A stretch of 64,000 nt of DNA from a virus (Duplodnaviria > Caudoviricetes), in IMG/VR virus record IMGVR_UViG_3300046167_000798. One strand, 5' to 3'. This document shows, piece by piece, positions 9,798 through 35,752 of the stretch. A program made the position numbers and the translations under genes. The notes beneath the pieces were generated by a model. It worked only from the letters and a program-made list of their open reading frames with translations. It searched no databases and was not told the DNA's origin. Position 1 is the first letter of the stretch; the number at the start of each line of letters is the position of its first letter.

Positions 9798-10371
9798 TTG
9801 GTTTATCTCTTTTAGATAATATTGGATTATCTGTTGGCCAATCTATGTTAAATCTTTTATCGTTCCAAAATACTGTACCTTGTTTATCATCATCGTAGTA
9901 TTCACCTTGATATGCAAGTTTGTATTGGAAAATGGAATTATCTTCCATTACATAGTGTCCATTTGCGAACATCGGTGGAATTAAAACTTGAGTACCTGTT
10001 TCAGGACCAATTATAAAAGATTCCCACTTACCATAGTTTGGTTGTTTTGGTCTTAAATCCAAAACCACAAGATATAACTTACCATGAGGACATGAAATTA
10101 GTTTCCATGTTTTATCATCCCAATGTAACCCTCTTAAGACATTTTGTTTTGATTTTGAATATCTATCGTGATTAAACTTCAACCCTTCGTTTCTTTCACC
10201 AGCTGGTAATAATCTATCGTAGAAATCAGAATGATATGTTGTAGTAATCATTCCTCTATATTCGTGATATATAGATGGTTGTATAATCTTTACTTGAGGC
10301 AAAACAGAACCATTGTAAAAGTGAAAATCATCCCAACTTCTTTCTTTGTAAAATATACTTCTATTTTTCAT
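9790..10371 (-). CDS. rfbC: dTDP-4-dehydrorhamnose 3,5-epimerase (RmlC/cupin) family
   Basis: NVLRGLHW..KLISCPHGKLYLVVLDLR, LIPPMFANGH, WNDKRFNIDWP..ILSKRD. Confidence 0.85.
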   Translation of the reverse strand: MKNRSIFYKERSWDDFHFYNGSVLPQVKIIQPSIYHEYRGMITTTYHSDFYDRLLPAGERNEGLKFNHDRYSKSKQNVLRGLHWDDKTWKLISCPHGKLYLVVLDLRPKQPNYGKWESFIIGPETGTQVLIPPMFANGHYVMEDNSIFQYKLAYQGEYYDDDKQGTVFWNDKRFNIDWPTDNPILSKRDKPNG

Positions 10372-14561: not shown

Positions 14562-15770
14562 TTAAAAATTAATAATACTATTAGAAATATGAACATCTGT
14601 TTGTTTTGTAAATTCTAATATACTATTTTTATTATTTAAAAATCTATCTTTATTGTTTTTATAAAAATGTATTATTTCATTTTCCAATCTACTTAATCGT
14701 AAGCACTCTTCAATAATCATTTTTAGTCTTTTTGTATTATCTAATTCTTTATCATAATCATGATTAATAAAATCATCAAATAAATCTAAATTATAATCAT
14801 CTCTTAAAGTTTTAACATGATTGGGAGATGCAACAAATATAGGTAATATTGGTAAACAAAATGGTTTTAAAGATTTTTCTGTTATATGGATACCATCAAA
14901 CCAATATACTGATTCAGTAATTATATTTATGTAAGAATTTCTATAATCTTTATGATTAACTTTTCCTGCAAAATCATAACCTGTTTCAAATAAATTTTCA
15001 ACATCTTTAAAATCTGAACTGTGTGATTCGTAATCAGTTAATTTCGGTTTTTTCATTTTATTAACATGATTTTTTTTGTAAAAAGAAAATGACTTATTAA
15101 TGTTATTAAAATCACTTTCTCTAAACTCATCCCAGTCTGTTTTAGGTGGTGTTAGAAAAGAATAATTTGTATTATCTAAAAGTCCATACATATCTAATAA
15201 ACAAATTGTAAAAAATCTATGTTCTTTACCTTCTTTATTTACACATAAAAACATCTTATCTCTTTTTTCTTCATTCCAAACCAAATCAAAATACTTAAAT
15301 TTTTCTAATAATGTTTTTGCAGTATTCTTCCATAAAAAATTTGTTTTAAATGTTTTAACATTTGTTTTAGAGTTTAAATTTTTTAAATTGGAATCATTAT
15401 TAATTAAAATAATTTTTTCTTGATGATTATCAAATAAATTAAGTAATTTTTCTATTTGTTTATATGGTTGTGTTTCATGCATATCCATAAAAACTAATCT
15501 AAAATTATCTTCTTTTAATAATTCTTTTATTTTTTTTAGAAATACACTATCAGTAGAATATACATCTATAATATGGTCAATTGAAAAGAATGATATAAAA
15601 TCAATATAATAAAATTTTTCATCTGGATTAAAGATAATATCATCTGATAATCTTAAATTTATATCAACACTATTATCTGAAAACCACATAAAGTGATTTA
15701 ATGTATTTTCAATTGTTGAAGACTCATAAATACTATGCCTTAACTCATATAAATCTTCTAATATATTCAT
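14562..15770 (-). CDS. GT10-like putative glycosyltransferase, paralogue 5
   Basis: FLCVNKEGKEHR; ITES..ITEKSLKPFCLPILP..LDLFDDFINHDYD. Confidence 0.5.
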   Translation of the reverse strand: MNILEDLYELRHSIYESSTIENTLNHFMWFSDNSVDINLRLSDDIIFNPDEKFYYIDFISFFSIDHIIDVYSTDSVFLKKIKELLKEDNFRLVFMDMHETQPYKQIEKLLNLFDNHQEKIILINNDSNLKNLNSKTNVKTFKTNFLWKNTAKTLLEKFKYFDLVWNEEKRDKMFLCVNKEGKEHRFFTICLLDMYGLLDNTNYSFLTPPKTDWDEFRESDFNNINKSFSFYKKNHVNKMKKPKLTDYESHSSDFKDVENLFETGYDFAGKVNHKDYRNSYINIITESVYWFDGIHITEKSLKPFCLPILPIFVASPNHVKTLRDDYNLDLFDDFINHDYDKELDNTKRLKMIIEECLRLSRLENEIIHFYKNNKDRFLNNKNSILEFTKQTDVHISNSIINF

Positions 15771-16777
15771 TATCTATTCAAAAATTTTCTTCCCTTTTTT
15801 ATTTCATTTCTCCAATAATCTAAAAGGTCATTCATAGTTTCTTCAAAAGTATATTTTGGTTTCCATCCTGTATGTTTTCTGAACTTTTCTGTATTTGGTA
15901 CTTGTAAATCAGCATCAATAGGTCTTAACCTATCTTCATCTACTTCAATTGTAATATCATCTCTTGTAGATTGTGAAATTAAGTAGTTTAACATATCTCC
16001 AATCTTACAAGTGTACTCACCACCAATATTATAGTACTCACCACTAATTGGATTTTTAGTTACCAATAAATAATAGGCTTCTACTGCATCTCTAACATCT
16101 GCATAAGTTCTAAGTGAATCTAAGTTACCAACATATATTGTAGGTTCTTGTAATCCAGCTTCTATCATTGCTATTTGTTTTGCAAAAGTTGATTCTGAGA
16201 ATACATCACCTCTTCTTGGACCTGTATGTGTAAACATTCGTGTTGTCATTATGGTTATACCAAATGCTTCTGCATAATATCTACCTAATAAATCTGTTCC
16301 TACTTTTGATATTGCATATGGAGATGCTGGATGTATTGAACACTCCTCATCTATTGGTAATTTATCTTTTGGTACTCTACCAAATATTTCAGATGAAGCA
16401 CAAACATGAACTACAACATCATCCTCACCATAATCTCTTATAGATTCCATTAAGTTTGCAGTACCTATAATATTTGTTTGTAAAGTTTCAAGTGGAGCTC
16501 TAAAAGATGTTTTTGGATAAGATTGAGCAGCTAAATGAAATACATAATTTGCTTCAGATTGTTCTACTGCTTGAATTACTGATGGTAAATCATTCAAATC
16601 TCCATTGATTAAAAACAATCTATCTTTCTTGTTAATTCTATCAAAGTGGTGTTCTAAGTTATCTAATCTATCGTTCCATCTAATAAATCCATAGATATCC
16701 CAAGTTGTATTCTCAATAAGGTAATCTACCAAGTGAGAACCAACCATTCCTGTTATTCCTGTTATTAATACATTCAT
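15770..16777 (-). CDS. GDP-mannose 4,6-dehydratase / Rmd-like SDR
   Basis: LITGITGMVGSH, HLAAQS, ASSE, SPYAISK, FAKQIAMIEAG, VGNLDSLRTYADVRD. I cannot separate Gmd from Rmd by eye. Confidence 0.85.
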   Translation of the reverse strand: MNVLITGITGMVGSHLVDYLIENTTWDIYGFIRWNDRLDNLEHHFDRINKKDRLFLINGDLNDLPSVIQAVEQSEANYVFHLAAQSYPKTSFRAPLETLQTNIIGTANLMESIRDYGEDDVVVHVCASSEIFGRVPKDKLPIDEECSIHPASPYAISKVGTDLLGRYYAEAFGITIMTTRMFTHTGPRRGDVFSESTFAKQIAMIEAGLQEPTIYVGNLDSLRTYADVRDAVEAYYLLVTKNPISGEYYNIGGEYTCKIGDMLNYLISQSTRDDITIEVDEDRLRPIDADLQVPNTEKFRKHTGWKPKYTFEETMNDLLDYWRNEIKKGRKFLNR

Positions 16778-20054: not shown

Positions 20055-21406
20055 AAATTATTTATAAAATATTTAATATCTTGGTCGTTGTTTGGAAAAT
20101 TCTCAACTATTTTTTTATTTTTTTCAAACCGTTCTCTATTTGATTTAAAAAAGGTTTTAAATAAATCTTGATTATCATTTATCCTTTCAATCTCTTTTAG
20201 TGTTGCTTGAAATCTTTCTTTATCATTTTCTATATCATTGTATGAATGGTCTATAATATCTCTATAAAAATCAAAACCAAATTCTTCTTCCATAAATTTT
20301 ATATGGTCTTTAGTTGCAAATATGATTGGAAATTGATAGTAAAAGAAAGGTCTGATTGACTTTTCAGTTACATGAATAACATCATTTGGATAATCAAAGC
20401 AAGATTCGGTAATAATACTTACATACGAATCTTTATGAGTTTCATCTGTTTCAGGTATCATGAGTCCACCAGATGCTCCACCAGCTCCTTCAATATGAAT
20501 ATCAGGTCTTTCAAATCCAAAATAATTTAATTTAACATTTTGTTCATAATCACTTTTTTTAGTATCCATGACAATGAATTTCTCTATAATATCTTTTTTT
20601 GAATCTACATCATTTAATAAACAATCAAACTGAGTATAGTGAAAGTGCTCCCAAAAATCTTTTTTTTCATATGAGAAATTAAACAACATAGACCAATTAG
20701 TGTTTTTAAGAATATTTCTATCTTCTAGTTCTATTAATGTTGCAACTCTATGTGTTTTTGGTGTTTTATTAAAACAAGAAAAAAACTTATCACTTTTTTC
20801 TTTAAAATACGAAGAACCCAATTCATTCCAAATACTTGAAGATGTTATTTGTAAAAGATTTGTTCTAAAAAACTCAAAATTTGAATTTAACGATTCTCTA
20901 TACTCTTTTATTTTAGGATTGTTTGAAATGATTACTAATTTACTATCTGATATATTATTTTTTTTAAAATAGTTTACTACCGAAGTAATATCTTGTAAAT
21001 TTTCAGGTTCATGTTCTCTTATATATAAAAACTTTATATTATCACACTCACTTAAACATTTATTAATAGAACTTGGTAAATCAGTTTGAGAAAAAATATC
21101 ATGCAAACTCCAATGTGATTTTATAGCATAATAAAATTTAGTTTCAGGATTATTATATACTTCTGATACTTTATATTTGTTTATAGTAAATAAATTACGA
21201 GGATATCCTAATTGTTCATAGAAAAATCTTTCGTAAAAATCAAAGTAACCCAACTCATCTCTAAAATCAGTATCTCCTAAAAGATTTGCTAATGTATATT
21301 GAGGAGTATCTACTAAAACTGTTTCTAATTCATTTGAAGTTTCTTTTACTACCCAAGAATCATAAACAAAATTTAAAGTTTTTTTAATGTTTTCGTGTGT
21401 TCCCAT
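20051..21406 (-). CDS. GT10-like putative glycosyltransferase, paralogue 6
   Basis: FSCFNKTPKTHR; ITES..VTEKSIRPFFYYQFP..GFDFYRDIIDHSYN. Confidence 0.5.
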   Translation of the reverse strand: MGTHENIKKTLNFVYDSWVVKETSNELETVLVDTPQYTLANLLGDTDFRDELGYFDFYERFFYEQLGYPRNLFTINKYKVSEVYNNPETKFYYAIKSHWSLHDIFSQTDLPSSINKCLSECDNIKFLYIREHEPENLQDITSVVNYFKKNNISDSKLVIISNNPKIKEYRESLNSNFEFFRTNLLQITSSSIWNELGSSYFKEKSDKFFSCFNKTPKTHRVATLIELEDRNILKNTNWSMLFNFSYEKKDFWEHFHYTQFDCLLNDVDSKKDIIEKFIVMDTKKSDYEQNVKLNYFGFERPDIHIEGAGGASGGLMIPETDETHKDSYVSIITESCFDYPNDVIHVTEKSIRPFFYYQFPIIFATKDHIKFMEEEFGFDFYRDIIDHSYNDIENDKERFQATLKEIERINDNQDLFKTFFKSNRERFEKNKKIVENFPNNDQDIKYFINNL

Positions 21407-22547
21407 AATGGATAACTTTTACTGTATCTGATTTAAAACTTCTCCAAGGGTCAACTACAATAGAATCCTTTGGAAAATTAAAATCATGATGTTTACCCAT
21501 ATGTCCTAAAAGATACACAGCTTTGTACGGATGTGGTTGGTCGTATTCTGGTACAATTCCTTCTTCTTTACAGTAATGCCCTACAAGTATAGATGAAGAA
21601 CCATCTAAGTAGTGAACATCTGGTTTATATGCTTTACCAAGTATAACAATAGGAAGTTTATTTTCGTTAGCCAACTCTACTAACTTAAGTGCCATATTTT
21701 TTGCCTGTACTTCTCTTGCCAACATAATAGCATCAAATAAATCATAACCCAATCCTAAGTTTTCTGCCATATATCTTAATGCAATATTATCTCTTGGATG
21801 ACATCCACCACCATCTCCCATTCCAGCCTTCATATAAGCCGGTCCAAGTATTCTGTAAGTACTTCTTTCAAGTGCACCTGTTACAACATCAACATTCATG
21901 TTACCATTTTTTTCTGCAACATCTTGAATCATGTTTACTAATGCTACTTTTGTTGAAATAAAAGTATTATAGAAGATTTTAATTCCTTCTGCCTCATCCC
22001 AAGTACCAACTTCATATCGTGTACCTGGTTTAATGAATGTTTTATAGAAATCTAAAAGTATTTTTGCATCACCTGTCATTGAACCATCTTCTGTACCGAT
22101 GATTACCATCTCAGGATTAACCATATCCCATTTTACAGTACCCATAGCAATTAGATATGGATTGTAAATAAATCTTGTATTGGATAATCTGTCGATAAAC
22201 TCTCTTCTGATTGTACCAGGTAAAACTGTTGAAATAAGAACTACTAATTGTTCTTTATTTGTGTGTTTGTTTACTTCATCTAATACATTGTTAACGATTG
22301 AGTAATCGAAATCTTTATTTGGTAAATGTGATGTGGGTTCTCTTCCATCATAATCAGGATGGTGAGGTGTAGGAACAGCAATAAAGATTAATTCTCTATC
22401 TTTACAAACTTCTTCAATGGAACTAACCATTTGAAAATTAGCCGGTTCAACTTTTGTTACATCGTAACCTATTACTTCATGTTTTTCAGCCATTATTTCA
22501 GCTGATTCTTTTCCGAGTTTTCCAACTCCTATAAAACCTATTTTCAT
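21384..22547 (-). CDS. ugd: UDP-glucose/GDP-mannose 6-dehydrogenase family
   Basis: IGFIGVGKLG, IAVPTP, STVLPGT, IKIFYNTF, GDGGGCHPRD, LGKAYKP. Confidence 0.9.
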   Translation of the reverse strand: MKIGFIGVGKLGKESAEIMAEKHEVIGYDVTKVEPANFQMVSSIEEVCKDRELIFIAVPTPHHPDYDGREPTSHLPNKDFDYSIVNNVLDEVNKHTNKEQLVVLISTVLPGTIRREFIDRLSNTRFIYNPYLIAMGTVKWDMVNPEMVIIGTEDGSMTGDAKILLDFYKTFIKPGTRYEVGTWDEAEGIKIFYNTFISTKVALVNMIQDVAEKNGNMNVDVVTGALERSTYRILGPAYMKAGMGDGGGCHPRDNIALRYMAENLGLGYDLFDAIMLAREVQAKNMALKLVELANENKLPIVILGKAYKPDVHYLDGSSSILVGHYCKEEGIVPEYDQPHPYKAVYLLGHMGKHHDFNFPKDSIVVDPWRSFKSDTVKVIHYGNTRKH

Positions 22548-22581: not shown

Positions 22582-24789
22582 TTATTTTATATCGTAAAAT
22601 ATATTTGCTAATATCTTAATAACTGAGTGTTGTGGGTTATAATCTCCAGCAGATAATTTATATCTTAAATCTACTTTATTATTAAAGTGTTGTTGATTGT
22701 AACGACACACCTCTATCATTTCATTTCTTAGTTCTTTCAATTCATCTATTGATTTATTTTCTAGTAATGCAAGTATATCAGCAACCTTCTGAATTCTAAC
22801 ATTAACATCAGTATCATTATCATAATCTTCATTCCACCATTTATCAAATGTTTTAAATCCTAATTTTTTAAGATATTTTAATGTATGTGGATTTCCTATT
22901 AATAAAAAAGGATGTCCTAAATATATTGGTTTCCATATTTTTTCAGATAAGAATAAAATTTTCTCATCAGCTAATGTTTCAGTTACCAATGATACAAATG
23001 TATGTGAAAAATCAGATATCGATATATCGTTTGCCCAATTTACATCCAATGTTCTATCAATAGTTAGTGGTGTTATTGAACTAAGTTCTTTCAAATTTGT
23101 ATAAATACGAGAATCACCTTCTTTTAAATCAAACTCACCAATACTAATCATTCCTCTCTTCAGTAAATCATATTCAAATAATTTTGAACAAATTCCTATT
23201 CTATGAGCTCTTCCCATATTTCTATTATAGGATAAATACAAGTTCATTGATTCATGTGGGTGATATGGAATTACATCATCTGGTCTAAATTGTGGATTTA
23301 ACCATATATCAAATGCAGATTCTCCGATACAATTAATTTTTAAACCTTTTTCTTTTGCAGAATCAGATATTTTTAAATTACCCGAAATATAATAAACCGA
23401 TTCTTCTTTTATTTTAGATTCATCACACCATTTTTTTATAATTTCCAAATCGTTGTTTTTATCTCCACCACTATATCCCTCAAGTGTATGATAGAAAACT
23501 ATTCTAGCTCTATTTTCCTTTACATCTCTTATAAATTTTTTAGAAACACATTTAAATCCAATATCTTTATTTAATTCAAAATAAGCTGGATTATAGATGG
23601 GGATTAAATATAGGTGTTTGTTATTTTTTATAGTTTTTCTATCATATAGTTTTACATTTTCACGCTTATTTATAGGAGCAACCATTCCTTTAAATGTTTC
23701 CTTGGTCATAAATTTTTTTGGGTCTCCATGTAGTACATTCCACTCCCCCCATAGTTTAGGAATACTAATTTTTCCTTCTTCTTCCAAGTACCATGTTTTC
23801 GATGAAGTTGCTGGTCTATTAAAATCTAATATACTATCATAATCTTCAAGAGTTATATTGATATCACCAACATACAAATCCCATATACCAGTATAATATG
23901 ATTTTGGAATAAGATTGGGATTTAATTTTTTAATTCTAGCAAAACTAACCGAATAATCTCTACTATCATTTACAACTTGAAAATCAGCATCTACTTTGGA
24001 TTCTATTACTTTTTCAATTTCACCAACTAACTCTCTTTTTGTAATATTTAATTCATCAAATCCAAGATTTAAAATTTTATCTTTATATGGAGTATTAATC
24101 AATCCAAATAAAAGTTCACACGCATCATCAATATGTAAATGAGGTCTATGTGCTTCAGGGTCCCAAATTTCTACTGACTTCCCTTCTTTAATATCTCCTA
24201 TTAAATTATTTATAAGAATATCATTTCTCTGAAAATCTCCTCTTCCATATAAAGTAGATAATCTAAATATTTTAAAAGAGTTGTTTTCTTTTAACATTAA
24301 CTTCTCACATTCTATTTTAAGTTTAGAATAATGTGAGGTTACCATTGGTTCAGTATATTCATTAACTGCCTCAGTTGTTTTTCCATATACACTACAACTA
24401 CTCATAAAATAAAAATGTTTTCCAGAATTTTCATTATCAATAGTATCACGAAACATTTCAATTACTTTAGAAAATCTATCTACTTCTTCAAGTACAGTTT
24501 TATCATCATTTATATCTTGTAATCTTGGGGATGCTAAATAAAATATTTTATCGTAATTTTCTAAGTTATTTACGTTGTTTTTTAAATTTAAAATATCATC
24601 TTCAATAAACTCAAAATGGTCTTGTTCTAATCCATTGTATATATTGAATTTATCTGATAACTTATCGATTACATCGTATGTATCATAATTCATATTATCA
24701 CATATGGTAACATGAAATCTATCTAACAATAATCTCTTAGATAATTTAAGTCCTAAATAACCAGCTCCTCCTATTACTAATATTTTCAT
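22582..24789 (-). CDS. Fusion of NAD-dependent epimerase and GT10-like paralogue 7
   Basis: N-terminal VIGGAGYLG, MSSCSVYG, YSKLK, RPHLHIDD. C-terminal YLSYNRNMGRAHR and VTET..LSEKIWKPIYLGHPF..GFKTFDKWWNEDYD. One uninterrupted 735-aa frame. Confidence 0.75.
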   Translation of the reverse strand: MKILVIGGAGYLGLKLSKRLLLDRFHVTICDNMNYDTYDVIDKLSDKFNIYNGLEQDHFEFIEDDILNLKNNVNNLENYDKIFYLASPRLQDINDDKTVLEEVDRFSKVIEMFRDTIDNENSGKHFYFMSSCSVYGKTTEAVNEYTEPMVTSHYSKLKIECEKLMLKENNSFKIFRLSTLYGRGDFQRNDILINNLIGDIKEGKSVEIWDPEAHRPHLHIDDACELLFGLINTPYKDKILNLGFDELNITKRELVGEIEKVIESKVDADFQVVNDSRDYSVSFARIKKLNPNLIPKSYYTGIWDLYVGDINITLEDYDSILDFNRPATSSKTWYLEEEGKISIPKLWGEWNVLHGDPKKFMTKETFKGMVAPINKRENVKLYDRKTIKNNKHLYLIPIYNPAYFELNKDIGFKCVSKKFIRDVKENRARIVFYHTLEGYSGGDKNNDLEIIKKWCDESKIKEESVYYISGNLKISDSAKEKGLKINCIGESAFDIWLNPQFRPDDVIPYHPHESMNLYLSYNRNMGRAHRIGICSKLFEYDLLKRGMISIGEFDLKEGDSRIYTNLKELSSITPLTIDRTLDVNWANDISISDFSHTFVSLVTETLADEKILFLSEKIWKPIYLGHPFLLIGNPHTLKYLKKLGFKTFDKWWNEDYDNDTDVNVRIQKVADILALLENKSIDELKELRNEMIEVCRYNQQHFNNKVDLRYKLSAGDYNPQHSVIKILANIFYDIK

Positions 24790-25796
24790 TCTCTTACTAA
24801 ATCAGTTGTTACACAATGGAATGAACCACCTAAAGTTCTTGAATGTCTAATCTGACAATCAAGTGTATCGATTCCATATTTCTTTAAATCTGTTATTAAT
24901 TGTTTTTGTCTATTATCTACAATTACTGTATTTTCATCTACTGATAATAAATTTACTCCAATCCATAAAGATGCTCTTATTGTTTGGTGGTATCCAATAT
25001 CTACCATCGGTGGACACCAAATTTTATCCCAAGATTTTAAGAACTCAGGCATATTGTTTTCATTTACTCTTTCAGGATTTAATAAACACAATCCTTCTCT
25101 CAAAACTGCAATAGTTGAATCAATATGAATATATGAATATACATCTTCAATGGTATGAACTCTATATTCACTACCTAAGAAGTTTTGCAACCACTTAGCA
25201 CCCTTTAAATTACCGGTGTTGGATACTAAGTACAAAATATCGTTATTACATCTTAGAATGTTTGCCGCATCAAATACAGGCTCGTGGTTATTTAAAGTAA
25301 TTTTAGATAAATCCTCTCTTTGATACATTGAATCTAATAATCTAGGTTTAGGAGCAGCTACCCAATTAGCACCTTGTTCCATTTTTTCTATAAAGATATC
25401 CTTGAAACAATCTGTTTCATATTGTCTTGACCTTAAAGACATTGCTGATTCAATTATATTATTACCAATTACTGTTACAGTATCTCTTGGACAGAAAGTA
25501 TAATACTGAGAAGTTTCCCAATGTCCATTTGATATTGTTTTAGTAGTATCGATAGGTGATGGTCTATAAACCTTAACACCAACATCAGTTAAAAGATTAG
25601 AAAGGTTTTCTAAATCTTCATAAGTTTCATCATATACTTTTTGGTCCCAAAATCCTAATTCGTTTTTTGGTATAGAATCTTCAGTAGCATAATTTATACA
25701 ATGTAAATCCTTACCATGAGTTGGCATATTTGCATTATCTACTGTTCCTACTATAACCTCTTTGAGTTTTCCCCACTCATTGTTTACATTAACCAT
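24786..25796 (-). CDS. Amidinotransferase (glycine/inosamine-phosphate amidinotransferase family)
   Basis: NEWGKLKEVIVG, CPRD, FDAAN, HIDST, GGSFHC; the Asp-His-Cys triad is intact. Confidence 0.9.
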   Translation of the reverse strand: MVNVNNEWGKLKEVIVGTVDNANMPTHGKDLHCINYATEDSIPKNELGFWDQKVYDETYEDLENLSNLLTDVGVKVYRPSPIDTTKTISNGHWETSQYYTFCPRDTVTVIGNNIIESAMSLRSRQYETDCFKDIFIEKMEQGANWVAAPKPRLLDSMYQREDLSKITLNNHEPVFDAANILRCNNDILYLVSNTGNLKGAKWLQNFLGSEYRVHTIEDVYSYIHIDSTIAVLREGLCLLNPERVNENNMPEFLKSWDKIWCPPMVDIGYHQTIRASLWIGVNLLSVDENTVIVDNRQKQLITDLKKYGIDTLDCQIRHSRTLGGSFHCVTTDLVRE

Positions 25797-25809
25797 ACTT
25801 ATTGTTTAT

Positions 25810-27720
25810 TTATTGTTTATTATAATTATAAGAACATCTCCAATATCTATTTTTTCTCTGATAGTGGTATGCTCTGTGATAAAATTCTAAAGGTTCTAAT
25901 TCTTCTTTATCATAATGGTCTAAAGTTATTGTTTCTGAATCTAATAAACCTAAAGTGTTTTGTATTGTATCTTGTTTATATGTTTTTTGAATTGGATAAA
26001 TATTAGTATAATCTCTACACATATCTAAATTAAATCTTACAACATCTGATAAATCTTCTTTAAATTTATGTTTACAAAATTCTGTTAGTTCTTCTTGTAA
26101 CCTATCTCTATTTTGTGAAAATACAATAGAAGTTGCTCCTTTATATTCCCAAAAAATATCATCATCTCCTAATACTTGTCTACCCCAAAATTCGGCTCTT
26201 TCAAAAACACCTCTCAACGAATCCTCACTCTCCAATAATTCTTCGCCAATTATAGTATCTTTCTTTGTATAAAAATATTCTAACATATCTTCAACAATAT
26301 CAATATGCTTAATACCATATTTGTTGTAAATATATTCTAAGAGATAGTGTCCCCATCCATAATAATAAAATACTATTAAAAGATGGGAAAACAAATTACC
26401 TTTAACAACAATATCTCGTGTTGTCGTGTTCGTCCCAACCACCGCTAACGTTCTCTCTACTATATAATCTTCTAAATCATCAACAGTTAAATAAAATGTA
26501 TCTAGGGGTACATCAACTGTTTTTAATTCATATTTTTTAATATATTCAGGTTGTCCCATTTCCGCATTGTAAGTAATAACAAGTGGATGTACCATTAAAA
26601 AATCTTTTTGTCCTAATTCTATTAATCTTTGAATACCATTTTTTAAAGTATCATAAGTTTCATTTGGCATTGGCCAAATTAATTCTGAATATGTTGGTAT
26701 ATCAACTTCTTGATATTTTTTTAAGTATGTAAGTGCTTCTTCTGTTTTAAGATTTAATCTTTTTGATGCATCTAGTGTTTCTTGATTCAAAGATTGCATT
26801 GCAAATGTTACTCCTTTAAATAATCGAGTACCTGCTTCTTTATCCATCATTGCTATTTCATAGATTCTATCAGAATTTGCCTTTGCCCAAGTTACATCCC
26901 AAAATTTTGGCCATCCTGTTTTCTGTTTTGTTTCAATTACATATTTTGTAATATCAACATCTCTTGGCATCAATCCCCAATTTGAATCACATACTGCAAC
27001 ATACTCAATCTTTTTTCTTGCCATCCAATCAATCTCTGCTTTCACTCTTACCATATCAAACATTTTGATTTTCTGCCAATATGCATCTCCGATATCACAA
27101 AATGTACATTTGTAAGGACAACCTCTTAAAGTTTCATAAGTTACCTGCCACATTTGAGGCCCATGTTCCTTTTCAACTCTTTCCATAATCCAATCATAAA
27201 AACCTGAAAGGATTGGTGATGGAATAATATTCAAATCTTGTACTCTTGTTGGAAGTGGACAAAGTTCTCCTCCTTTTGGAAAAACATGAGGAATATCTTC
27301 AAACGTTTCTCCTTTATGAAATCGTTTTAATAATTCTTTTGATGCAAATTCACCCTCTCCTAAAACGGCAACATCAAACATTGGATAATTTGTAAAAAAC
27401 TCTTTATCTCGTTTATCAACATGAGGTCCTCCTGTGATTGTTAAACAGTTTGGATATTTTTCTTTTGTTCTTTTTGCTAATTCTTTATTATATTCCCAAT
27501 TCCAAACATAAGAAGATAACATCATTACATGAGGTTCATCAACCATATCATCTACATATTGTTTTGGTGGTTTTTTTTCAATCAAAACATCAGAAACTTG
27601 GTAATTTTCTTTTACCATTTTACTTGTACTCGCAAACATCCATTGGTAACTTATCGCAATAGGTAAGAAACTGTTTGGTCCGTATTTATCCGCTACTTGT
27701 ACAAGATATAAGTTTTTCAT
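25810..27720 (-). CDS. Cobalamin-binding radical SAM protein
   Basis: B12-domain motifs SSYVWN, ITGGPH, GEGE; ETLRGCPYKCTFC (CxxxCxxC). Confidence 0.9.
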   Translation of the reverse strand: MKNLYLVQVADKYGPNSFLPIAISYQWMFASTSKMVKENYQVSDVLIEKKPPKQYVDDMVDEPHVMMLSSYVWNWEYNKELAKRTKEKYPNCLTITGGPHVDKRDKEFFTNYPMFDVAVLGEGEFASKELLKRFHKGETFEDIPHVFPKGGELCPLPTRVQDLNIIPSPILSGFYDWIMERVEKEHGPQMWQVTYETLRGCPYKCTFCDIGDAYWQKIKMFDMVRVKAEIDWMARKKIEYVAVCDSNWGLMPRDVDITKYVIETKQKTGWPKFWDVTWAKANSDRIYEIAMMDKEAGTRLFKGVTFAMQSLNQETLDASKRLNLKTEEALTYLKKYQEVDIPTYSELIWPMPNETYDTLKNGIQRLIELGQKDFLMVHPLVITYNAEMGQPEYIKKYELKTVDVPLDTFYLTVDDLEDYIVERTLAVVGTNTTTRDIVVKGNLFSHLLIVFYYYGWGHYLLEYIYNKYGIKHIDIVEDMLEYFYTKKDTIIGEELLESEDSLRGVFERAEFWGRQVLGDDDIFWEYKGATSIVFSQNRDRLQEELTEFCKHKFKEDLSDVVRFNLDMCRDYTNIYPIQKTYKQDTIQNTLGLLDSETITLDHYDKEELEPLEFYHRAYHYQRKNRYWRCSYNYNKQ

Positions 27721-28409
27721 TTTGAGAATATACTATTTTTTGTTATATCTTTATAGGACTCCGAAGAATGAGTATCTTCGTGTTCTACATTAAGTTGATT
27801 AAATAAAATCAATCCTCTTGCTGCATCTTCTGGTGTCATATACATATGATACCCAAATAAATCAATATCATCTTCTAACTGAGATTTATTTAAATCTCTA
27901 CCATCATATCTAATCTTTTTTAAATACTCATATGCCCTTTTATCATCAGTTAGTATAATCCCACCTCTACCAATTGGTAATCTTTTTTTAATCTGAAAAG
28001 ATAAAACTTGCAGTGAGTTATTACCAACATACATATCTTTTGTAAATCTACCCGCAGAATCCCAAATATTAAAAGGTTCTAATTGATAAATACCTTTCCA
28101 TTCTGTATTTTCAAAAAATACTCTATATCCTGCATTTATAATTTGTTTAGGTACTGATATGTAAGTGTGTTTTGGTATTGATATTACATTACCTTCCTTA
28201 CGAATATATTTTAAACAAAGAAATAATCCATTTGTACAACAATCAATTGCAATTGCATATTTAGAACCAGCATATTCTGATATTTCTTTTTCAAACATTT
28301 CCACAATCTCGTGTGGTTTATTCCAATCGTAACCAAGTTCTCTAATTTGGTCTGGTTCAGGTCTTTGGAATTCTTTTGGTATTTTTCCGAGTGGCCAAGT
28401 ATTATGCAT
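27717..28409 (-). CDS. DegT/DnrJ/EryC1/StrS PLP aminotransferase (short, 230 aa)
   Basis: FEKEISEYAGSKYAIAIDCCTNGL, WDSA, SFQIKKRLPIGRGG (PLP Lys), GYHMYM. Confidence 0.85.
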   Translation of the reverse strand: MHNTWPLGKIPKEFQRPEPDQIRELGYDWNKPHEIVEMFEKEISEYAGSKYAIAIDCCTNGLFLCLKYIRKEGNVISIPKHTYISVPKQIINAGYRVFFENTEWKGIYQLEPFNIWDSAGRFTKDMYVGNNSLQVLSFQIKKRLPIGRGGIILTDDKRAYEYLKKIRYDGRDLNKSQLEDDIDLFGYHMYMTPEDAARGLILFNQLNVEHEDTHSSESYKDITKNSIFSK

Positions 28410-29566
28410 TATATGTAAGGTGTTGTATCATTATTTAATTTACTATTTTTATATACTTCAAGAATTTCTTCTATATTATTATCTCGAACATTTACAACAG
28501 GTTTATTTCTATCTTCATTATTATAATATTTTGCAAATTCACTCCAAGTTGAATCAGGATTTGCTATAAGCATTCCACAGTAACTAAGACCGAATAAGTC
28601 AATAATATTAGCAAAAACATTACCATATGTTTTCATAAATTCTATATCCATTCCTGCTCTATATGCATTTTCTTCCATTGCATATCTAAAAAATACTTTT
28701 TCAGATATTCTATCCTTATATCTTAATTCATATGGCCTTAGAAATACATCAGGTAAATCATGTGAAATATAAAATTTTTGTTTTGGATTTATTTTTAGTA
28801 TTTCATCAATTATATCAAAATACATAGTATCAGGATAAAATTTATAATTATCGTTAACTGATTTTAATCCATGAATTTTTTCTTTATACATTTTGCCTAA
28901 ATTTGGGTCTGTATCATCCCATGTTTTTATTTCTTCATCATTTACTTTAACTCCATTAAATCTCCTTATATGAATACCAACACAATCATGTAATGAAGAT
29001 GATAAAGTTTCTTCCATATATGAGTGTCTTAATCTTATCTTAGTTAAAGGTCTATTATATGGGTCATATGAATCCTTTATTGATTTTGATGCATATTTGT
29101 TAACTACATCTTTTAAAGTTTCATATCCAAAATCAGAATGATAATGGTCTTTATCTAATATTCCTTTATTATTAAAAATTTTAGCCACATTCGATAGTTT
29201 TAACTTTTCTGATAAGTAAACATTTTCATTTGGTAAATCATATACTGTTTTAAATGATAATGTTTCATAATCAAAATTCCAAGTCCAATCTTGTTTTTGT
29301 AAATTTGATACAGATGGAAATGTGTTTGGCATATCAATCAGAGGTAATTCTGGCCAATGTTTTTGTTGTATTTGTATTTTATGAGAGTTTTTATTTATCT
29401 CAGATAAAAAATGTGCAATTTCCCAATGGAATATTCTATTACATAATCCTGTATCATTGTTACTAAGTGAAACATTGAAATTATTAAAATAATTATGAGC
29501 CTGTCCCCACCCTCCAAATGGTTCAATCCATCTTAGGGTTTTTTTAAAAATATCATGATTATTCAT
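28409..29566 (-). CDS. GT11/GT23-like fucosyltransferase-fold protein
   Basis: TGLCNRIF, VGIHIRR, FYISHD, DLFGLSYC..STWS follow the GT11/GT23 motif order. Confidence 0.55.
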   Translation of the reverse strand: MNNHDIFKKTLRWIEPFGGWGQAHNYFNNFNVSLSNNDTGLCNRIFHWEIAHFLSEINKNSHKIQIQQKHWPELPLIDMPNTFPSVSNLQKQDWTWNFDYETLSFKTVYDLPNENVYLSEKLKLSNVAKIFNNKGILDKDHYHSDFGYETLKDVVNKYASKSIKDSYDPYNRPLTKIRLRHSYMEETLSSSLHDCVGIHIRRFNGVKVNDEEIKTWDDTDPNLGKMYKEKIHGLKSVNDNYKFYPDTMYFDIIDEILKINPKQKFYISHDLPDVFLRPYELRYKDRISEKVFFRYAMEENAYRAGMDIEFMKTYGNVFANIIDLFGLSYCGMLIANPDSTWSEFAKYYNNEDRNKPVVNVRDNNIEEILEVYKNSKLNNDTTPYI

Positions 29567-31034
29567 CTATTGTGAATTATTAGGATTATATACACCATCT
29601 TCAAAGTGTGTAATTTCACCTGATTTCATTGGTACATCGGGTATTGTTTGGTCAACATCTATTCCTTGATACCAAACTGCTAGTTCTGGAAATGTTTTAC
29701 AAAAATCCTTACCTCTTCGTTTATCATATTGTTCATAGAATGATTTGAAATCATGAAAGTGAGTATCGTTCTCATCTTCAGTAGTAACATGACCTGTTTT
29801 AACTACTTCTATATAATCTACCAATCTTTCTATTTGTGCAATTTCACCCTCACTAAATAATTCGTAAAAATCTTTATCTTGTTTTCTTGTTTCAAACCAC
29901 TTTGATAGTTTTTTGTGTAAAAATACTTTTACATCAGTTGGTAAAGATAATGGAGACATAAATGCAGGCCATCTTAAGATATTAAAATCAACATTAGGTC
30001 TATTTGGTCCATATTTTCTTTTTAACACAATCATATCATCTAAGAATTCATCTATTGAGAATAAACATAGTGAGTTAATTGTCATCATTACTGTTAAAGA
30101 ACGAAATATATCTTTATTTACCCCTTCAAGAAACGCAACCATATGACTTCTCCATTCAGGATAAATCAACCCATCTCTAATATAATCAGCATGAGGCCCA
30201 TAAGCTTCATTTGAAGTATATAAATCAAATTCTTTAATTGGTAATTCATAAGAAGCATCAATTAATCTTTGGATTCTTTTAAAGTTACCACCTAAGTTAG
30301 AATTTACAGCCAATCTAAGTTTATCAGAAGGATATCCTTTCATTTTATCTAAGAAACTCCAAAAGTTTGGAGATGCACAAGGTTCACCACCTGTAATTCT
30401 TATTTCTTCCAATCCTCCTTCAATCAAATCAGGCCACCACTTTAGAAATGCCTCTACATAAGGATTTTGTTCGAGGTATTTACCATTTGCATCCGCCCAT
30501 GAACCATTGTTTTGATATGCACCAGCTGATACTGATTTAAACTTTTGATAAGGTCCGAACTTATCAATATCTTTACCCCAAGTAGTGGAGTATCCAGCAT
30601 TACAATAAGAACACGCAAAATTACAAACTCTATCAAATGAAGCTTCTATTGTTTTTGGAATAATATCAACATCTGCTCCTAGTTCTTTAATCTTTGCAAT
30701 ATCTTCTTCTTTATAGATTTTAGATTTGTAAACCCTATCACCAATATTATCTCTACCAATATCTTCAATCTTCCAACAATAAGAACATTCAGCAGGTCGT
30801 GTTCCTTCCAACATCATTTTTCTCTGTCTTTTAGAGAAGTCTGTATTATGTAGTTCTTGTGGTCTATCTTTTAACTTTTCTGCATCGATTGGATGTGGTA
30901 AAGGTAAATGACATGAGTTCTTAAAACCCATGACCTAAGTGTAACGATACATTGTACCATTTAGCTGCACAAAAACTTGGTGATATACTGTTGAGATTTT
31001 TATCTCTCCATTTTCTTAAATTATCTGTTGACAT
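29567..31034 (-). CDS. Radical SAM protein with N-terminal twitch/SPASM-like Cys cluster, paralogue 1; +1 indel at 30927-30929
   Basis: True start ATG 31034 (MSTDNLRKW..FCAAKWYNVSLHLGH) joins GFKNSCH after deleting one base; CSYCW, CNFACSYC, ITGGEP. Confidence 0.85.
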
Positions 31035-31782: not shown

Positions 31783-33199
31783 TTTAATTCATTTATAAAT
31801 TTTCTTAATTCAGGAAATGTTTCATAACAATCCAAATCTCTTCTTTTTTTGTAATCACTAATATAGTGTTTAAATTTTTTCTTTCCTATATCAAATGTAA
31901 TATCTGATTTATTATCTTCTATGAACATATCCTTTATTCTTGATATCTTTTCAATTTCTTTTAATGAAAATCCAGTATCACCTATTTCTTGCATATCATA
32001 TGAATTTAAACTTCTATACGTTGAAAAAAACTTCATATACTTTTCTATCTTTCTCAAAGTATGAAATATCTAAATATCCTTTCAACAATCTAAAACTTAA
32101 AAAATCAGGATATCTTAAGTAAGAAGTATCAAGTATTATTGGAGAATTCCAATATCTTTCAGTATTGAAAGTGTTTTAGTTTGTGTTGATAAATTTTTCT
32201 AACTAATTTTTCATAGTTGAATGGAGAAAATATATTGAAAGTTGACATTACAACAATAGTAACCTTTGGTAACTTTTCTAGTATCTTATCTATATTATCA
32301 AATAGTTGTTTAAAATCTAAACCTGTTCTGATAAACTCTGCTTGTTCTCCATATGTATCAACTGAAGTATATATAATAAATTCTTTTACTCTTTTTTCAT
32401 TGATTATTACAGATGCCTTTTCAATCAATCTATCTATTAGTTTATCATCAACACAAAGATTACTATTAATAGAAAGTTTTAATTTTTTATTTGGTGTTTC
32501 GGTTTCTATTATTTTATCTAACACTTTAAACGTATCTTTTGATAAAAGAGGTTCACCACCTGTAATTCTAAAAGTATCCATACTCTTATATAATTCAGGC
32601 CACCATTTCCAAAATGCCTCCACATAAGGATTGTGGTCTTTTTGAAGAATCGGCACCATATCTTCTTTTTTTAGTTGTTCTAATGAATTAAATCCATCAC
32701 CAGTAGAAAACTCTCCATGTTTTTTCATCTCCTCTACCCACTTAGAAGAATATGATGGGCCACAATACCCACATTTAAAATTACAAGTATTAGAAAATGA
32801 TGCCTCTACATACTTAGGTAAATAATCAGCTTTCCAATCTATATTTTTAATTTCTTTAAAATACGGTTTTGACCAATCTTCCTCTGATTTAAAAACTCTA
32901 TCAGAATATGAATTAGAATTATCTTCTACTTTCCAACAATAACCACATTCTTTTGGTCTTTTGTTTTCCAACATTTCTTTTCTAGCTTTTTTCTTTTGAG
33001 AACTATTATGAAGAGCTGTTGGATTTCTTTGTAATTCTCTTAATCCTATTTTATGAGGTGCAGGATGATGACAAGAATGAGTAGAACCATCATGTAAGTG
33101 CATTGTAACTTGTGTCCATTTTGCTAAACAAAATCCACAACCAACCGAATCTAAATTCTTTTTAGTTTCTTCAAAGTTATTTCCGATAACTTTACTCAT
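31779..33199 (-). CDS. Radical SAM protein with N-terminal twitch/SPASM-like Cys cluster, paralogue 2; +1 indels near 32169 and 32051
   Basis: FCLAKW..SCHH..CGYCW, CNFKCGYC, ITGGEPLL. Repair gives ..KHFNTERYWNSPIILDTSYLRYP..YFEKIEKYM..TFPEL, matching the C-terminus of paralogue 1. Confidence 0.85.
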
Positions 33200-33900: not shown

Positions 33901-35345
33901 AACTTAATATTTATGAATTTTGCCTTAGGTGTAATTTCTTCTATACTAACTAATTCATAATTAAGTGAGTTCATTCCATCAGATTTATAATCCCAAGTAC
34001 CACCTTGCATTTCCTTTACAAATCTTCTTTCATTTCTTGCAGTAGTTTCTCCTTTTGCCCAAACATCTTTACCATGTTCATTTTTTACCAATCCTTCATC
34101 TTTATGGTCTAAACAATACATTCTACCCTCTACTCTATGTGGTACAACTGTGTATGGTATTTTAATATCATCTTTATTAAATTCACAATTAAAATTTATC
34201 CCATCGTTATCATTGTCGGATTTATCCACCACTAAACCATCTTCAAAATCATAATGAAGGGATAACCCATCATCTGAATAATCTTCATGTAAAGTACTAA
34301 CCTCATCTGCAGTTAATGCTCTATTCCACATTTTTAAATCTGCAATATCTCCTTTAAACCATTTAGATGGGTCATTATCTGAAACTGATGTTGTTGTTCC
34401 TAAATAATAATCAGTATTACCATATCTTTTTAACATACCTTCAAATTCAAGAGGTGAATGTGTACCAGTTCCCCATCGTGCATCTGATTCTTTTCCATTC
34501 ATATACAAGTGAATATTATTTTCATCAACTACTAAAGTAATCCAACTCCATTGGTTTTCATATCGCTTCATCCATGAATATAAATGTTTTCGTGAATTAT
34601 TCCATAGTTGAGATGTATATGCTCTTGAATTATTATAACTCAATCCATAATCATATCCTGGTCTACGAAGTATTGGATATTCACAAAATCTCCTATCCAT
34701 ATCACCAACTAACCAAACAGGTACTTTTTCTTCTTGTTGGTGTGCTCTAACTAATACTGAAATTGTATGTGAACGAGATGTTAAATTTCTAAGTTTTCGT
34801 GTACAAGGAATTTGTACATATGAATTTTTACCATTAAATGAAATGTAGTTTTGTGTATTATTTTTAAAATCTAAATGGGTTTGATTGGCATATCCTTCCA
34901 AATTACATCTCCAAAATAAATCATCATCTTCCATACCCCAATCCCAATAATCATTACTGTATCCATTGGTTTTCTCAACTTGTTCTTTTGAAAATACAAT
35001 TGCTCCTCCAAAATATTCTTCATATTTTAGTTGGTAGTTCATTTGTGAAATATTAGTTGCAATATGTCTTGGGTTTTCTTTTGGAAAACTATAATCTGCC
35101 CCACCACCTTCTTCAGGTATCATATCGATATCATGCCAAACAACATAATCACATCCATCTTCAAATGCATACTTTGCCGCAATGTTTTTTGTTGCTCCTC
35201 TGTTAAATAGTTTATCATCAACTTGATGTCCAAAATAGATATGATAATCTATACCCTGTCCATCAAGATATTTACCAATCTTTGGTATAAACTCTTTTAA
35301 GTGAGCTTCTCTATTTCTATATGGAACACAAACTCCTAACTTCAT
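33897..35345 (-). CDS. GT7 galactosyltransferase-like enzyme with inserted LamG domain, paralogue 1
   Basis: VPYRNR, FNRG, HDIDM (DxD), YFGG, WGMEDDD; ~240-aa LamG-like insert (ISFNG..WITLV..IHLYMNG..KGDIADLKMWNRAL); then GRMYCLDH..DGMNSLNY. Confidence 0.85.
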   Translation of the reverse strand: MKLGVCVPYRNREAHLKEFIPKIGKYLDGQGIDYHIYFGHQVDDKLFNRGATKNIAAKYAFEDGCDYVVWHDIDMIPEEGGGADYSFPKENPRHIATNISQMNYQLKYEEYFGGAIVFSKEQVEKTNGYSNDYWDWGMEDDDLFWRCNLEGYANQTHLDFKNNTQNYISFNGKNSYVQIPCTRKLRNLTSRSHTISVLVRAHQQEEKVPVWLVGDMDRRFCEYPILRRPGYDYGLSYNNSRAYTSQLWNNSRKHLYSWMKRYENQWSWITLVVDENNIHLYMNGKESDARWGTGTHSPLEFEGMLKRYGNTDYYLGTTTSVSDNDPSKWFKGDIADLKMWNRALTADEVSTLHEDYSDDGLSLHYDFEDGLVVDKSDNDNDGINFNCEFNKDDIKIPYTVVPHRVEGRMYCLDHKDEGLVKNEHGKDVWAKGETTARNERRFVKEMQGGTWDYKSDGMNSLNYELVSIEEITPKAKFINIKL

Positions 35346-35752
35346 AGTGTATCTGCAATTAGTTTTTTAAATTTGGTTGTACTCCAACCATGGTCTCTGT
35401 TTAAATAATGAATTGGTATATCTAATTCGAAACCTGTATATGTTTTACCTCGATAATCATCTCCTAAGAATCTGATATCTGGTGATAATCTTTTTAATAA
35501 ATCTACCAATTCTTTTTCATAAGTATAATATGCAATTCCATTTATAAATCTGATTGATGTTAGGATTTCTGTTCTTTCTTCTTTAGTAAGAATTGGTTTC
35601 AGTTTATGTGGTCTTTCTATTGATGGGTCTGTATGTAATAAAACTATAAATTGTTTACAATATGATTTACATTCTTTAAACATTTTTATATAACCTGGAT
35701 GTATTACATCAAAGTTTCCAGCAATTACTCCTACATCGTATAATGGCTTCAT
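35342..35752 (-). CDS. Cytidylyltransferase-like (TagD/HldE domain II)
   Basis: AGNFDVIHPGY, LGDDY, HGWSTT. Confidence 0.85.
   Translation of the reverse strand: MKPLYDVGVIAGNFDVIHPGYIKMFKECKSYCKQFIVLLHTDPSIERPHKLKPILTKEERTEILTSIRFINGIAYYTYEKELVDLLKRLSPDIRFLGDDYRGKTYTGFELDIPIHYLNRDHGWSTTKFKKLIADTL

Follow-up and report, generated by a model that had tools for sequence, protein, structure and literature searches.

A StrB1-type amidinotransferase paired with a single-domain DegT aminotransferase in a phage glycan locus: candidate enzymes for a 4-guanidino sugar

Introduction

The amidinotransferase StrB1 of streptomycin synthesis acts on 1-amino-1-deoxy-scyllo-inositol 4-phosphate (EC 2.1.4.2), in which the amine and the phosphate lie para to each other on a six-membered ring. 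TokK and CysS, two cobalamin-dependent radical SAM enzymes, are C-methyltransferases that work on sp3 carbon. To our knowledge, a guanidino group as the permanently cationic part of a sugar building block has so far been found only in aminoglycoside antibiotics. Here we describe three adjacent genes that encode a StrB1-type L-arginine amidinotransferase (AT), a TokK-like radical SAM enzyme and a short aminotransferase of the DegT family (mini-DegT). They lie in a 64,000-nucleotide stretch of viral DNA (Duplodnaviria; Caudoviricetes) from a large aquatic phage that is uncultured, IMG/VR record IMGVR_UViG_3300046167_000798, which as a whole is called the window below.

Genes of these kinds have been noticed in a cultured virus. 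In the description of Synechococcus phage S-SCSM2R, an AHBA-synthase-like gene, a radical SAM gene and an "inosamine amidinotransferase" were read as "antibiotic synthesis genes", with no data offered (BMC Biol 2025, PMC12801897). Our literature searches found no relevant paper on guanidino sugars made by amidinotransferases in polysaccharides or glycans, and none on cobalamin radical SAM enzymes of phages. The genes of the window were first picked out from the DNA letters alone (hereafter the original prediction), and a methylated guanidino sugar or cyclitol was proposed as a decoration of the virus surface. The present analysis adds the perosamine-synthase-like character of mini-DegT, the exchange of an acyltransferase for AT, the optional standing of the cobalamin (B12) enzyme, a recurrent link to a nucleoside diphosphate (NDP)-sugar 6-dehydrogenase (Ugd), and the fact that a large part of the viral AT clade lies outside a sugar context. 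The reading that we favour, and whose chances we judge to be evenly balanced, is that an NDP-4-keto sugar is converted to a 4-amino and then to a 4-guanidino sugar for a glycan that the phage builds.

An amidinotransferase of the StrB1 type

The three genes are consecutive open reading frames (ORFs) on the minus strand, and each lies exactly where the original prediction had placed it, between positions 24786 and 28409 (Table 1). In order of transcription they encode mini-DegT, the radical SAM enzyme and AT. The gene upstream, for a 385-aa protein, shares bases with the mini-DegT gene, its stop lying on the mini-DegT start. The mini-DegT and radical SAM genes overlap in an ATGA, as do the AT gene and the downstream gene for a 735-aa protein, and 13 nt separate the radical SAM gene from the AT gene. 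Junctions as tight as these fit one translationally coupled unit. A scan for consensus promoters and terminators gave nothing beyond chance level.

A phmmer search of the PDB with AT retrieved StrB1 (1BWD) with an E-value of 6e-96 and about 50% identity, residues 1–335 being aligned with residues 3–339 in a colinear manner with two single-residue gaps only. The next matches, SxtG (7e-60), HsvA (2e-57) and AGAT (3e-51), all need insertions. AT residues D105, D176, H224, D226 and C328 align with D108, D179, H227, D229 and C332 of StrB1, and the intact Asp/His/Cys triad that had been claimed for the protein is thus present as C328, H224 and D176, with D105 and D226 as the aspartates that hold the guanidino group. 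Among 65 family members, the conservation of D105, H224, D226 and C328 is 90% or higher. No Pfam family matched AT at an E-value of 0.01 or below, the NCBIfam collection gave only the tails of arginine deiminase and dimethylargininase (E 0.01–0.09), and the protein matches PHROG 25854, a family of unknown function (2e-34). The curated family models are simply insensitive for this enzyme.

A phylogenetic placement of AT had been suggested. In our tree, which was anchored by Streptomyces StrB1-like loci and by PDB E-values and was built with the exact StrB1, SxtG, HsvA and AGAT sequences left out, the viral ATs form one clade (71 rows, support 95) within the StrB1-type group (support 99). This separate, mostly viral clade stands apart from the Streptomyces StrB1-like sequences and from the remoter AGAT-like representatives.

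The residues that precede the catalytic histidine set the choice of acceptor in AGAT, CyrA and AmtA (PMC4887976). They read Y-S/A-aromatic-x across the viral AT clade and Y-A-S-T in Streptomyces. Within the region of residues 219–223, the position two before the histidine is aromatic (Tyr, Phe or Trp) in viruses clade-wide; it is Ser in the Streptomyces StrB1-like sequences, and mostly Gly with a few Phe or Tyr in other cellular homologues. The aromatic residue may be a determinant of the acceptor pocket. Taken together, the residues before the histidine are compatible with an acceptor other than that of StrB1, without being diagnostic.

A single-domain DegT aminotransferase

The protein that had been described as a short DegT-type enzyme dependent on pyridoxal 5'-phosphate (PLP) matches Pfam DegT_DnrJ_EryC1 (PF01041) at 68 bits (cut-off 19.8) in two stretches, and it keeps both the lysine and the aspartate that bind PLP. 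K142, in the sequence S137-F-Q-I-K141-K142, matches the Schiff-base lysine of the SFxxxK motif, and D117 is the aspartate for PLP N1; D117, S137, F138, Q139, K141 and K142 are invariant among 39 family members. The usual two-domain DegT architecture of about 360–400 aa is missing, the C-terminal domain being absent. A database search gave 2219 clusters of relatives, and nearly all of the 120 matches listed are 220–250 aa long, so the short form is a family trait and not a truncated pseudogene.

The AlphaFold2 model of mini-DegT has a pLDDT (predicted local distance difference test score) of 91.5. Foldseek placed GDP-perosamine synthase on top, with CalS13, ArnB and PseC also matched (TMq 0.6–0.68); normalised to the target, TM is 0.36–0.44, which corresponds to the large domain of sugar aminotransferases only. 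The best PDB sequence match is 7B0D (E 1.9e-7), deposited as "glutamine--scyllo-inositol transaminase" and labelled by Foldseek simply as a sugar transaminase. When modelled as a homodimer the protein scored 0.79 against 0.00 for the best control, a result that may reflect its likeness to solved DegT dimers; of the solved structures, 20 of 30 homodimers and one of 23 monomers reach the score mark that we used. The homodimer runs share at least 84% of their contacts with a partner pLDDT of at least 90, and the modelled interface takes in residues 140–148 (the lysine loop) and 181–198. Judged from these comparisons and from its neighbours in other loci, given below, mini-DegT is probably a perosamine-synthase-like 4-aminotransferase. 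As the smallest apparently functional member of the much-used DegT family, it is of interest on its own account.

At close range mini-DegT is the more widespread of the two partners: AT is nearby in only 10 of the 60 viral mini-DegT loci that extend 4 kb or more to each side. Among 70 IMG/VR mini-DegT loci without AT, a strong GDP-mannose 4,6-dehydratase (Gmd; PF16363, 382 bits) occurs in 69, and it is the gene next to mini-DegT in 30 of the 33 AT-less loci examined. A hexapeptide N-acyltransferase was found in 43 of the 70 and in none of the 23 AT-linked mini-DegT loci; the simplest reading is therefore that AT stands in for the acyltransferase as the amine-capping enzyme. The AT-linked and Gmd-linked mini-DegTs are 52–58% identical and are interleaved in an unresolved tree. 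On gene content, the order Gmd, 4-aminotransferase, N-acyltransferase would represent the canonical perosamine logic, from 4-keto to 4-amino to N-acyl.

Loci L101–L178 carry a small cassette (for example L101:5932-8709) made of a 156-aa protein of unknown function, a hexapeptide acyltransferase or a methyltransferase, mini-DegT and a canonical Gmd, which from its genes looks like a compact N-acyl-perosamine pathway. The 156-aa neighbour was considered as the supplier of the absent DegT C-terminal domain and was set aside, having no Pfam match. The 324-aa gene after mini-DegT in AT-less loci, considered as a cryptic amidinotransferase, was likewise rejected since it is Gmd. In the cultured Flavobacterium phage immuto, mini-DegT is followed by a PglB-like acetyltransferase.

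These associations back the sugar half of the "guanidino sugar or cyclitol" that had been proposed, the kin of mini-DegT being tied to GDP-sugar genes, and they disfavour the other half. For a streptidine-like guanidino cyclitol, mini-DegT would act on scyllo-inosose in the manner of StsC, and AT on an inosamine phosphate. StrB1 is indeed the closest characterised homologue of AT (E 6e-96), but in the tree the Streptomyces StrB1-like sequences are not the sister group of the phage AT; 7B0D, the best sequence match of mini-DegT, carries an inositol name, but to Foldseek it is a sugar transaminase and the mini-DegT relatives go with GDP-mannose dehydratase. The locus holds a PfkB-family kinase as such a route might require, yet this kinase matches the heptose-7-phosphate kinase RfaE at 113 bits and IolC at 36 bits. 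Moreover, a search of the locus and of four related phage records, of which one is 100% complete, detected neither an inositol-1-phosphate synthase nor a Gfo/Idh/MocA dehydrogenase, whereas positive controls gave matches. With no inositol genes at hand, we consider a cyclitol product very unlikely.

Pairing of the two enzymes among viruses

Seventeen loci whose AT is at least 72% identical to that of the window are referred to as close loci. In all 17, mini-DegT lies 0–3 genes upstream of AT; the fucosyltransferase-like 385-aa gene is also present in all 17, the 735-aa fusion protein with a short-chain dehydrogenase/reductase (SDR) domain in 14, and Ugd in 11. Within the closest set (L002–L011) the identities are 80–96% for AT, 77–95% for Ugd, 52–73% for mini-DegT and 35–48% for the transferase-like genes. 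AT is under much stronger constraint than its neighbours, and Ugd likewise is far more conserved.

AT relatives occur on at least 451 IMG/VR contigs, and there are more than 2000 protein clusters for mini-DegT and for AT each. Of 81 viral AT loci, 26 have a mini-DegT gene within 8 kb of AT. These loci fall at five separate points of the AT tree, and the position of mini-DegT relative to AT varies among them (from −787 to −3563 on the upstream side, and at +1539 and +4314 on the downstream side). The analogy with streptidine synthesis that had been drawn for the window, with a DegT enzyme for the step from keto to amino and a StrB1-like enzyme for the step from amino to guanidino, holds, and the pairing is constant in the clade of the window and recurs elsewhere in the tree. 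It is also found in cyanophage S-SCSM2R and in metagenome contig L097. In three of three complete jumbo-phage genomes (276–289 kb) that have AT but no nearby mini-DegT, a mini-DegT gene lies 21–29 kb away.

A second deep lineage (L226–L230) is 46% identical to the window in AT, 43% in mini-DegT and 63% in Ugd. One of its members, L226, repeats a B12 radical SAM enzyme, Ugd, a 2-oxoglutarate (2OG) oxygenase, mini-DegT, AT and a twitch-like radical SAM protein; the wider gene set around the pair is recurrent. Ugd adjoins AT in the distant lineages L095, L231, L235, L236, L243, L249 and L226. The small 2OG-Fe(II) oxygenase stands beside the mini-DegT/AT pair in L226 (6553-7371) and in L001 (S-SCSM2R ORF308) and is not found in the window; it suggests hydroxylation as a further optional tailoring step.

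Other surroundings of AT were also seen. In L012 (5183-10885) and 17 alike IMG/VR loci (L201–L225), AT is always flanked by four non-glycan genes, which encode a MoxR-like AAA ATPase, a DUF2201 metallopeptidase/VWA protein, a 111-aa protein and a metallophosphoesterase.

An optional cobalamin-dependent radical SAM enzyme

The 636-aa protein encoded between mini-DegT and AT has the two domains expected of the cobalamin radical SAM enzyme that had been proposed, B12-binding (PF02310, 35.8 bits; cut-off 32.1) and Radical_SAM (PF04055, 43.6 bits; cut-off 29.5), and a CxxxCxxC motif in the form CPYKCTFC. Its closest solved relatives are TokK (E 3.3e-75, residues 17–496) and CysS (E 5.6e-46). With the KedN5 subfamily model NF033712 of NCBIfam it scores 223 bits (cut-off 700) over profile positions 13–387 of 624.

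Judged from these relatives, the 636-aa enzyme is probably a C-methyltransferase; as a member of the module it is optional. Its gene occurs in six of the 17 close loci (L002–L006 and L011) and is absent from L007–L010 and L180–L186. Thus, of the triad that might have been expected to stay together, the mini-DegT/AT pair is always kept in the clade of the window and the B12 gene is not. In L007 and L010, the B12-less loci examined, the space between mini-DegT and AT is taken up by one or two SGNH-like genes. Such SGNH/GDSL-like inserts, with the motifs FGCS..G..G and DLSHNG, lie at L007:6470-8043, L002:7196-8008 and L010:7187-8008; L002 holds its insert besides the B12 radical SAM gene, and the window has none. 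If the B12 enzyme is active, the host would need cobalamin.

Proposed pathway and points against it

We infer substrates, product and target of the module from gene identities, catalytic residues, folds, synteny and co-occurrence. Mini-DegT and AT would form a two-step nitrogen-tailoring module within a phage island for glycan synthesis. In the first step, the PLP-dependent mini-DegT homodimer would transaminate a nucleotide-activated sugar at its C4 keto group, yielding a 4-amino sugar. The keto sugar could be GDP-4-keto-6-deoxymannose from a Gmd-like dehydratase, leading to a perosamine-type product, or a UDP-4-keto (uronate) sugar from the co-conserved Ugd and the downstream SDR domain. In the second step, the amidino group of L-arginine would be transferred to Cys328 of AT, with release of ornithine, and from there to the sugar amine, giving a permanently cationic 4-guanidino sugar. 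The amine and the phosphate of a 4-amino-4-deoxy-hexose 1-phosphate or NDP-sugar would be arranged para to each other, as they are in the StrB1 substrate. In a third step, a neighbouring transferase, with the 385-aa fucosyltransferase-like protein as the first candidate, would place the guanidino sugar into a glycan built up in the cytoplasm on a soluble acceptor, for which a virion protein is the most plausible candidate. The B12 radical SAM enzyme would be an accessory whose probable role is C-methylation at an unactivated carbon, either of this sugar or of a neighbouring one; methylation of a sugar is here suggested by context.

Several observations weigh against this pathway. It is read from genes, and its product has been observed neither for the phage of the window nor for its relatives. 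None of the AT-linked loci has a canonical Gmd in an adjacent position, and the Gmd-like gene of the window lies about 8 kb downstream of AT and is 30% identical to the canonical phage Gmd (L101). Mini-DegT lacks the C-terminal domain that is present in every characterised DegT enzyme, and its activity is a prediction. The residues before the catalytic histidine of AT are YSYI and not the YAST of StrB1. In about two thirds of the viral AT loci no mini-DegT lies within 8 kb, and the largest other viral AT subclade (the 18 loci described above, 45–49% identity) is found in a non-glycan setting. Finally, 80 cellular AT homologues (42–52% identity) from Streptomyces, cyanobacteria, Vibrio, Paenibacillus and others, found by a genome scan with a six-sequence alignment, have ABC transporters, ATP-grasp ligases, Orn/Arg decarboxylases and asparagine synthases as neighbours; no DegT or glycosyltransferase (GT) genes were seen near any of them. 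The 50% identity to StrB1 thus leaves the acceptor unfixed, since equally distant cellular homologues lie outside sugar genes.

Does AT then make a free guanidino metabolite, such as homoarginine, guanidinoacetate or an amidinated polyamine, from arginine and an amino acid, polyamine or other small amine, its place in the island being incidental or serving to supply an aglycone? The characterised relatives other than StrB1 do use small amines, and HsvA and SxtG are among the next-best PDB matches; AT itself has none of the insertions of AGAT, SxtG or HsvA and resembles StrB1 in length and alignment. AGAT and CyrA use glycine, and AmtA uses lysine (PMC4887976). Cellular homologues among ligases, decarboxylases and exporters and the large viral subclade in a non-glycan context would fit a metabolite of this kind, but in the clade of the window AT invariably lies, translationally coupled, between genes for sugar enzymes, and the association with mini-DegT recurs across independent lineages and gene orders. 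We regard the free metabolite as unlikely, and return to the guanidino sugar below.

The surrounding locus

Table 1. Genes of the module and of the co-conserved island, with positions in the window
Feature	Positions	Strand	Details
Ugd-like NDP-sugar 6-dehydrogenase	21384..22547	-	Pfam UDPG_MGDP_dh_N + central domain
SDR domain fused to 400-aa domain of no known family	22582..24789	-	735 aa; Pfam Epimerase 77.8 bits
StrB1-type L-arginine amidinotransferase (AT)	24786..25796	-	336 aa; phmmer vs PDB 1BWD E 6e-96
Cobalamin-dependent (class B) radical SAM enzyme, TokK/CysS/KedN5 type	25810..27720	-	636 aa; PF02310 + PF04055
Mini-DegT, PLP-dependent sugar aminotransferase-like, large domain only	27717..28409	-	230 aa; PF01041
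Fucosyltransferase-like protein	28409..29566	-	385 aa; language-model feature search only
Twitch-domain radical SAM protein	29567..30931	-	NCBIfam NF033640 257 bits, cut-off 170
Second twitch-domain radical SAM protein	32159..33199	-	NF033640 284.8 bits, cut-off 170
Gmd-like NDP-hexose 4,6-dehydratase	15770..16777	-	Pfam GDP_Man_Dehyd 248.7 bits

The original prediction had named a fucosyltransferase-like gene and an epimerase-GT fusion as the flanks of the three genes. Of these, the SDR domain of the fusion is genuine, the fucosyltransferase is a language-model lead and the GT half is a weak lead. The 385-aa protein has no Pfam or NCBIfam match; a feature search in a language-model atlas gave O-FucT, FUT8 and NodZ clusters at 0.94–0.95. 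The gene lies upstream of mini-DegT in each of the 17 close loci (35–46% identity), and its product is a candidate transferase for a GDP-sugar. In the 735-aa fusion the Epimerase match spans residues 3–243, and the SDR half has S-C-S in place of the T-S-E/T-D-E of decarboxylases and dehydratases, together with YSKLK. Foldseek gave the UDP-GlcA 4-epimerase 6ZLA and the C4-dehydrogenase Cj1427 on top for this half. The C-terminal half has a weak GT10 lead (0.77), and the top Foldseek matches of the fusion are all to the SDR half. A route to 4-amino-arabinose through Ugd, an ArnA-like and an ArnB-like enzyme was considered and set aside, the SDR being without the T-S-E decarboxylase motif; the SDR is kept only as a possible 4-epimerase or 4-oxidase.

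The C-terminal domain of the fusion (22582-23800) is kin to ORFs 3100-4149, 6705-8018 and 8655-9797. The kinship of the four ORFs lies in a stretch of about 100–150 aa with 25–33% identity to the same L097 ORFs, and no Pfam model covers it. Judged by sequence, these paralogous domains are possibly a new transferase family.

The Ugd-like protein scores 151 bits with TIGR03026, under the cut-off of 189.8, and keeps the catalytic Cys in GGGCHPRD. The Gmd-like protein scores 157 bits with TIGR01472 (gmd), also under the cut-off, and has the motif STSSEIFG; homologues are present in all four related phage records, and it is a candidate source of a 4-keto-6-deoxy sugar. The first twitch-domain radical SAM protein is 64–95% identical across all 17 close loci, and its paralogue is kept in all of them. 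Radical SAM sugar dehydratases exist, and by analogy the twitch proteins could be makers of keto sugars by dehydration; sugar dehydratases or epimerases are possible functions. Distant twitch radical SAM copies adjoin AT in L200, L226, L234 and L240.

The 39-kb locus (about 40 ORFs, positions 3100 to 42215) was scanned with Pfam and NCBIfam. It encodes six SDR domains, the Gmd-like 4,6-dehydratase, RmlC, Ugd, an RfaE-like kinase and nucleotidyltransferase, a split transketolase-like pair, SGNH proteins, three GT7-LamG proteins and three radical SAM enzymes, with about a dozen transferase-like genes in all. The halves of the split transketolase/E1-like pair, TPP-binding and pyrimidine-binding, lie 3 kb apart at 8027-8671 and 4306-4836, and suggest two-carbon branch or chain-extension chemistry on a sugar. 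The RfaE domain I-like kinase (10371-11120) and the RfaE domain II-like nucleotidyltransferase (35342-35752) are 24 kb apart and hint at synthesis of a nucleotide-heptose inside the island.

The window has a G+C content of about 28%, and every ORF of at least 150 aa lies on the minus strand. Several features support its origin from a phage: a Phage_tail_APC chaperone gene precedes ORFs of 1913 and 934 aa just upstream of the glycan locus, PHROG gave matches to an SbcC-like nuclease and a tRNA nucleotidyltransferase, and there are dozens of kindred IMG/VR contigs. For the SbcC-like protein, the nearest records come from Microcystis phage Mel-JY01 (37%) and from an uncultured phage of 484 kb (35%), and the lineage is therefore one without a close cultured relative. 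The three genes as DNA queries had zero matches among 50,697 phage records.

Where would the glycan be placed? One hydrophobic segment, a borderline one, was seen in the 40 ORFs, and there are no clear membrane proteins; no flippase, polymerase or lipid-carrier transferase was found among the ORFs scanned. The island adjoins the tail-assembly chaperone and giant tail-fibre-like ORFs. That the locus is all-soluble and lies beside tail genes speaks for phage proteins being glycosylated in the cytoplasm, for which mycobacteriophages reportedly offer a precedent. It is on the basis of this setting that we infer the decoration of the virion surface that had been proposed.

The all-soluble locus would also suit an AT that acts after assembly, on an amino sugar of the glycan or on a lysine of a phage protein (giving homoarginine), and not on a nucleotide sugar. 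The active site of the StrB1 type is reportedly open relative to that of AGAT; we know, however, of no protein- or polymer-directed member of the family. The close partnership of AT with an aminotransferase whose predicted substrates are small nucleotide sugars points to the monomer stage instead. A different, second "glycine amidinotransferase" (ORF266) was found in purified S-SCSM2R virions (PMC12801897), which counts in favour of this alternative. On balance we hold this alternative to be improbable.

The genes might also modify phage DNA, by way of a hypermodified base or DNA glycosylation, in place of a protein or cell-surface glycan. Phages employ PLP enzymes, radical SAM enzymes and glycosyltransferases in DNA hypermodification, and Campylobacter phages with replaced guanine carry distant AT homologues (23–30% identity). 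Yet the hallmarks of such systems (DpdA, hydroxymethylase, kinase) are not among the Pfam matches, and a 39-kb locus rich in sugar-nucleotide enzymes, with its dozen or so transferase-like genes beside tail genes, is hardly what DNA modification would call for. We consider it extremely improbable.

The guanidino sugar thus stays the favoured product. Its most specific form, that aquatic jumbo phages build a 4-guanidino sugar (perosamine-like or a 4-amino-uronate), C-methylated in some lineages, into a glycan of their own particle, is put forward tentatively, and we would lean slightly against it as a whole. If it is true, a permanently cationic building block would be added to glycobiology, as the first guanidino sugar in any glycoconjugate, and amidinotransferase chemistry would be used by phages, beyond actinomycetes. 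The sugar would be made by an aminotransferase reduced to a single domain, together with enzymes of a viral branch of the streptomycin AT family that is present on hundreds of phage contigs. A charged, methylated glycan on the virion or the infected cell could alter adsorption, aggregation, recognition by grazers and resistance to host enzymes in the sea.

Comparison with known systems

StrB1 of Streptomyces griseus (1BWD, EC 2.1.4.2) and the phage AT (348 and 336 aa) are colinear, about 50% identical and share their catalytic residues. The phage enzyme differs in belonging to a separate, mostly viral clade and in sitting among nucleotide-sugar enzymes without cyclitol genes, and its acceptor is therefore probably another one. 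With the streptidine branch of streptomycin synthesis the module shares the sequence keto to amine (DegT family) to guanidine (AT) with arginine as the donor. In that branch, however, StsC is followed by a kinase and then by StrB1, whereas the phage locus has no recognised streptidine-type kinase or phosphatase; the phage aminotransferase is a single domain of 230 aa, and the genes belong to a phage glycan island and not to an antibiotic cluster.

The GDP-perosamine pathway (Gmd, Per/RfbE, PerB; 3DR7, 3BN1) provides the top structural match of mini-DegT, and in most viral loci mini-DegT has Gmd and a hexapeptide acyltransferase as its neighbours; the clade of the window has AT and no acyltransferase, and its mini-DegT is without the C-terminal domain. 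TokK, CysS and KedN5 (7KDX, 9N1B) have the B12-binding and radical SAM domains and the CxxxCxxC motif in common with the 636-aa enzyme, which differs in scoring under the KedN5 cut-off, in a divergent C-terminal part of 140 residues and in its sugar context.

A cultured example is Synechococcus phage S-SCSM2R (PQ898602; ORF305, ORF306, ORF309), which has a mini-DegT (37%), a radical SAM protein and a StrB1-like AT (43%) among glycosyltransferases. Its radical SAM gene is short (266 aa) and is annotated as an SkfB/NifB/PqqE-family maturase. This cultured phage carries both mini-DegT and AT, so the idea of a guanidino sugar is directly testable.

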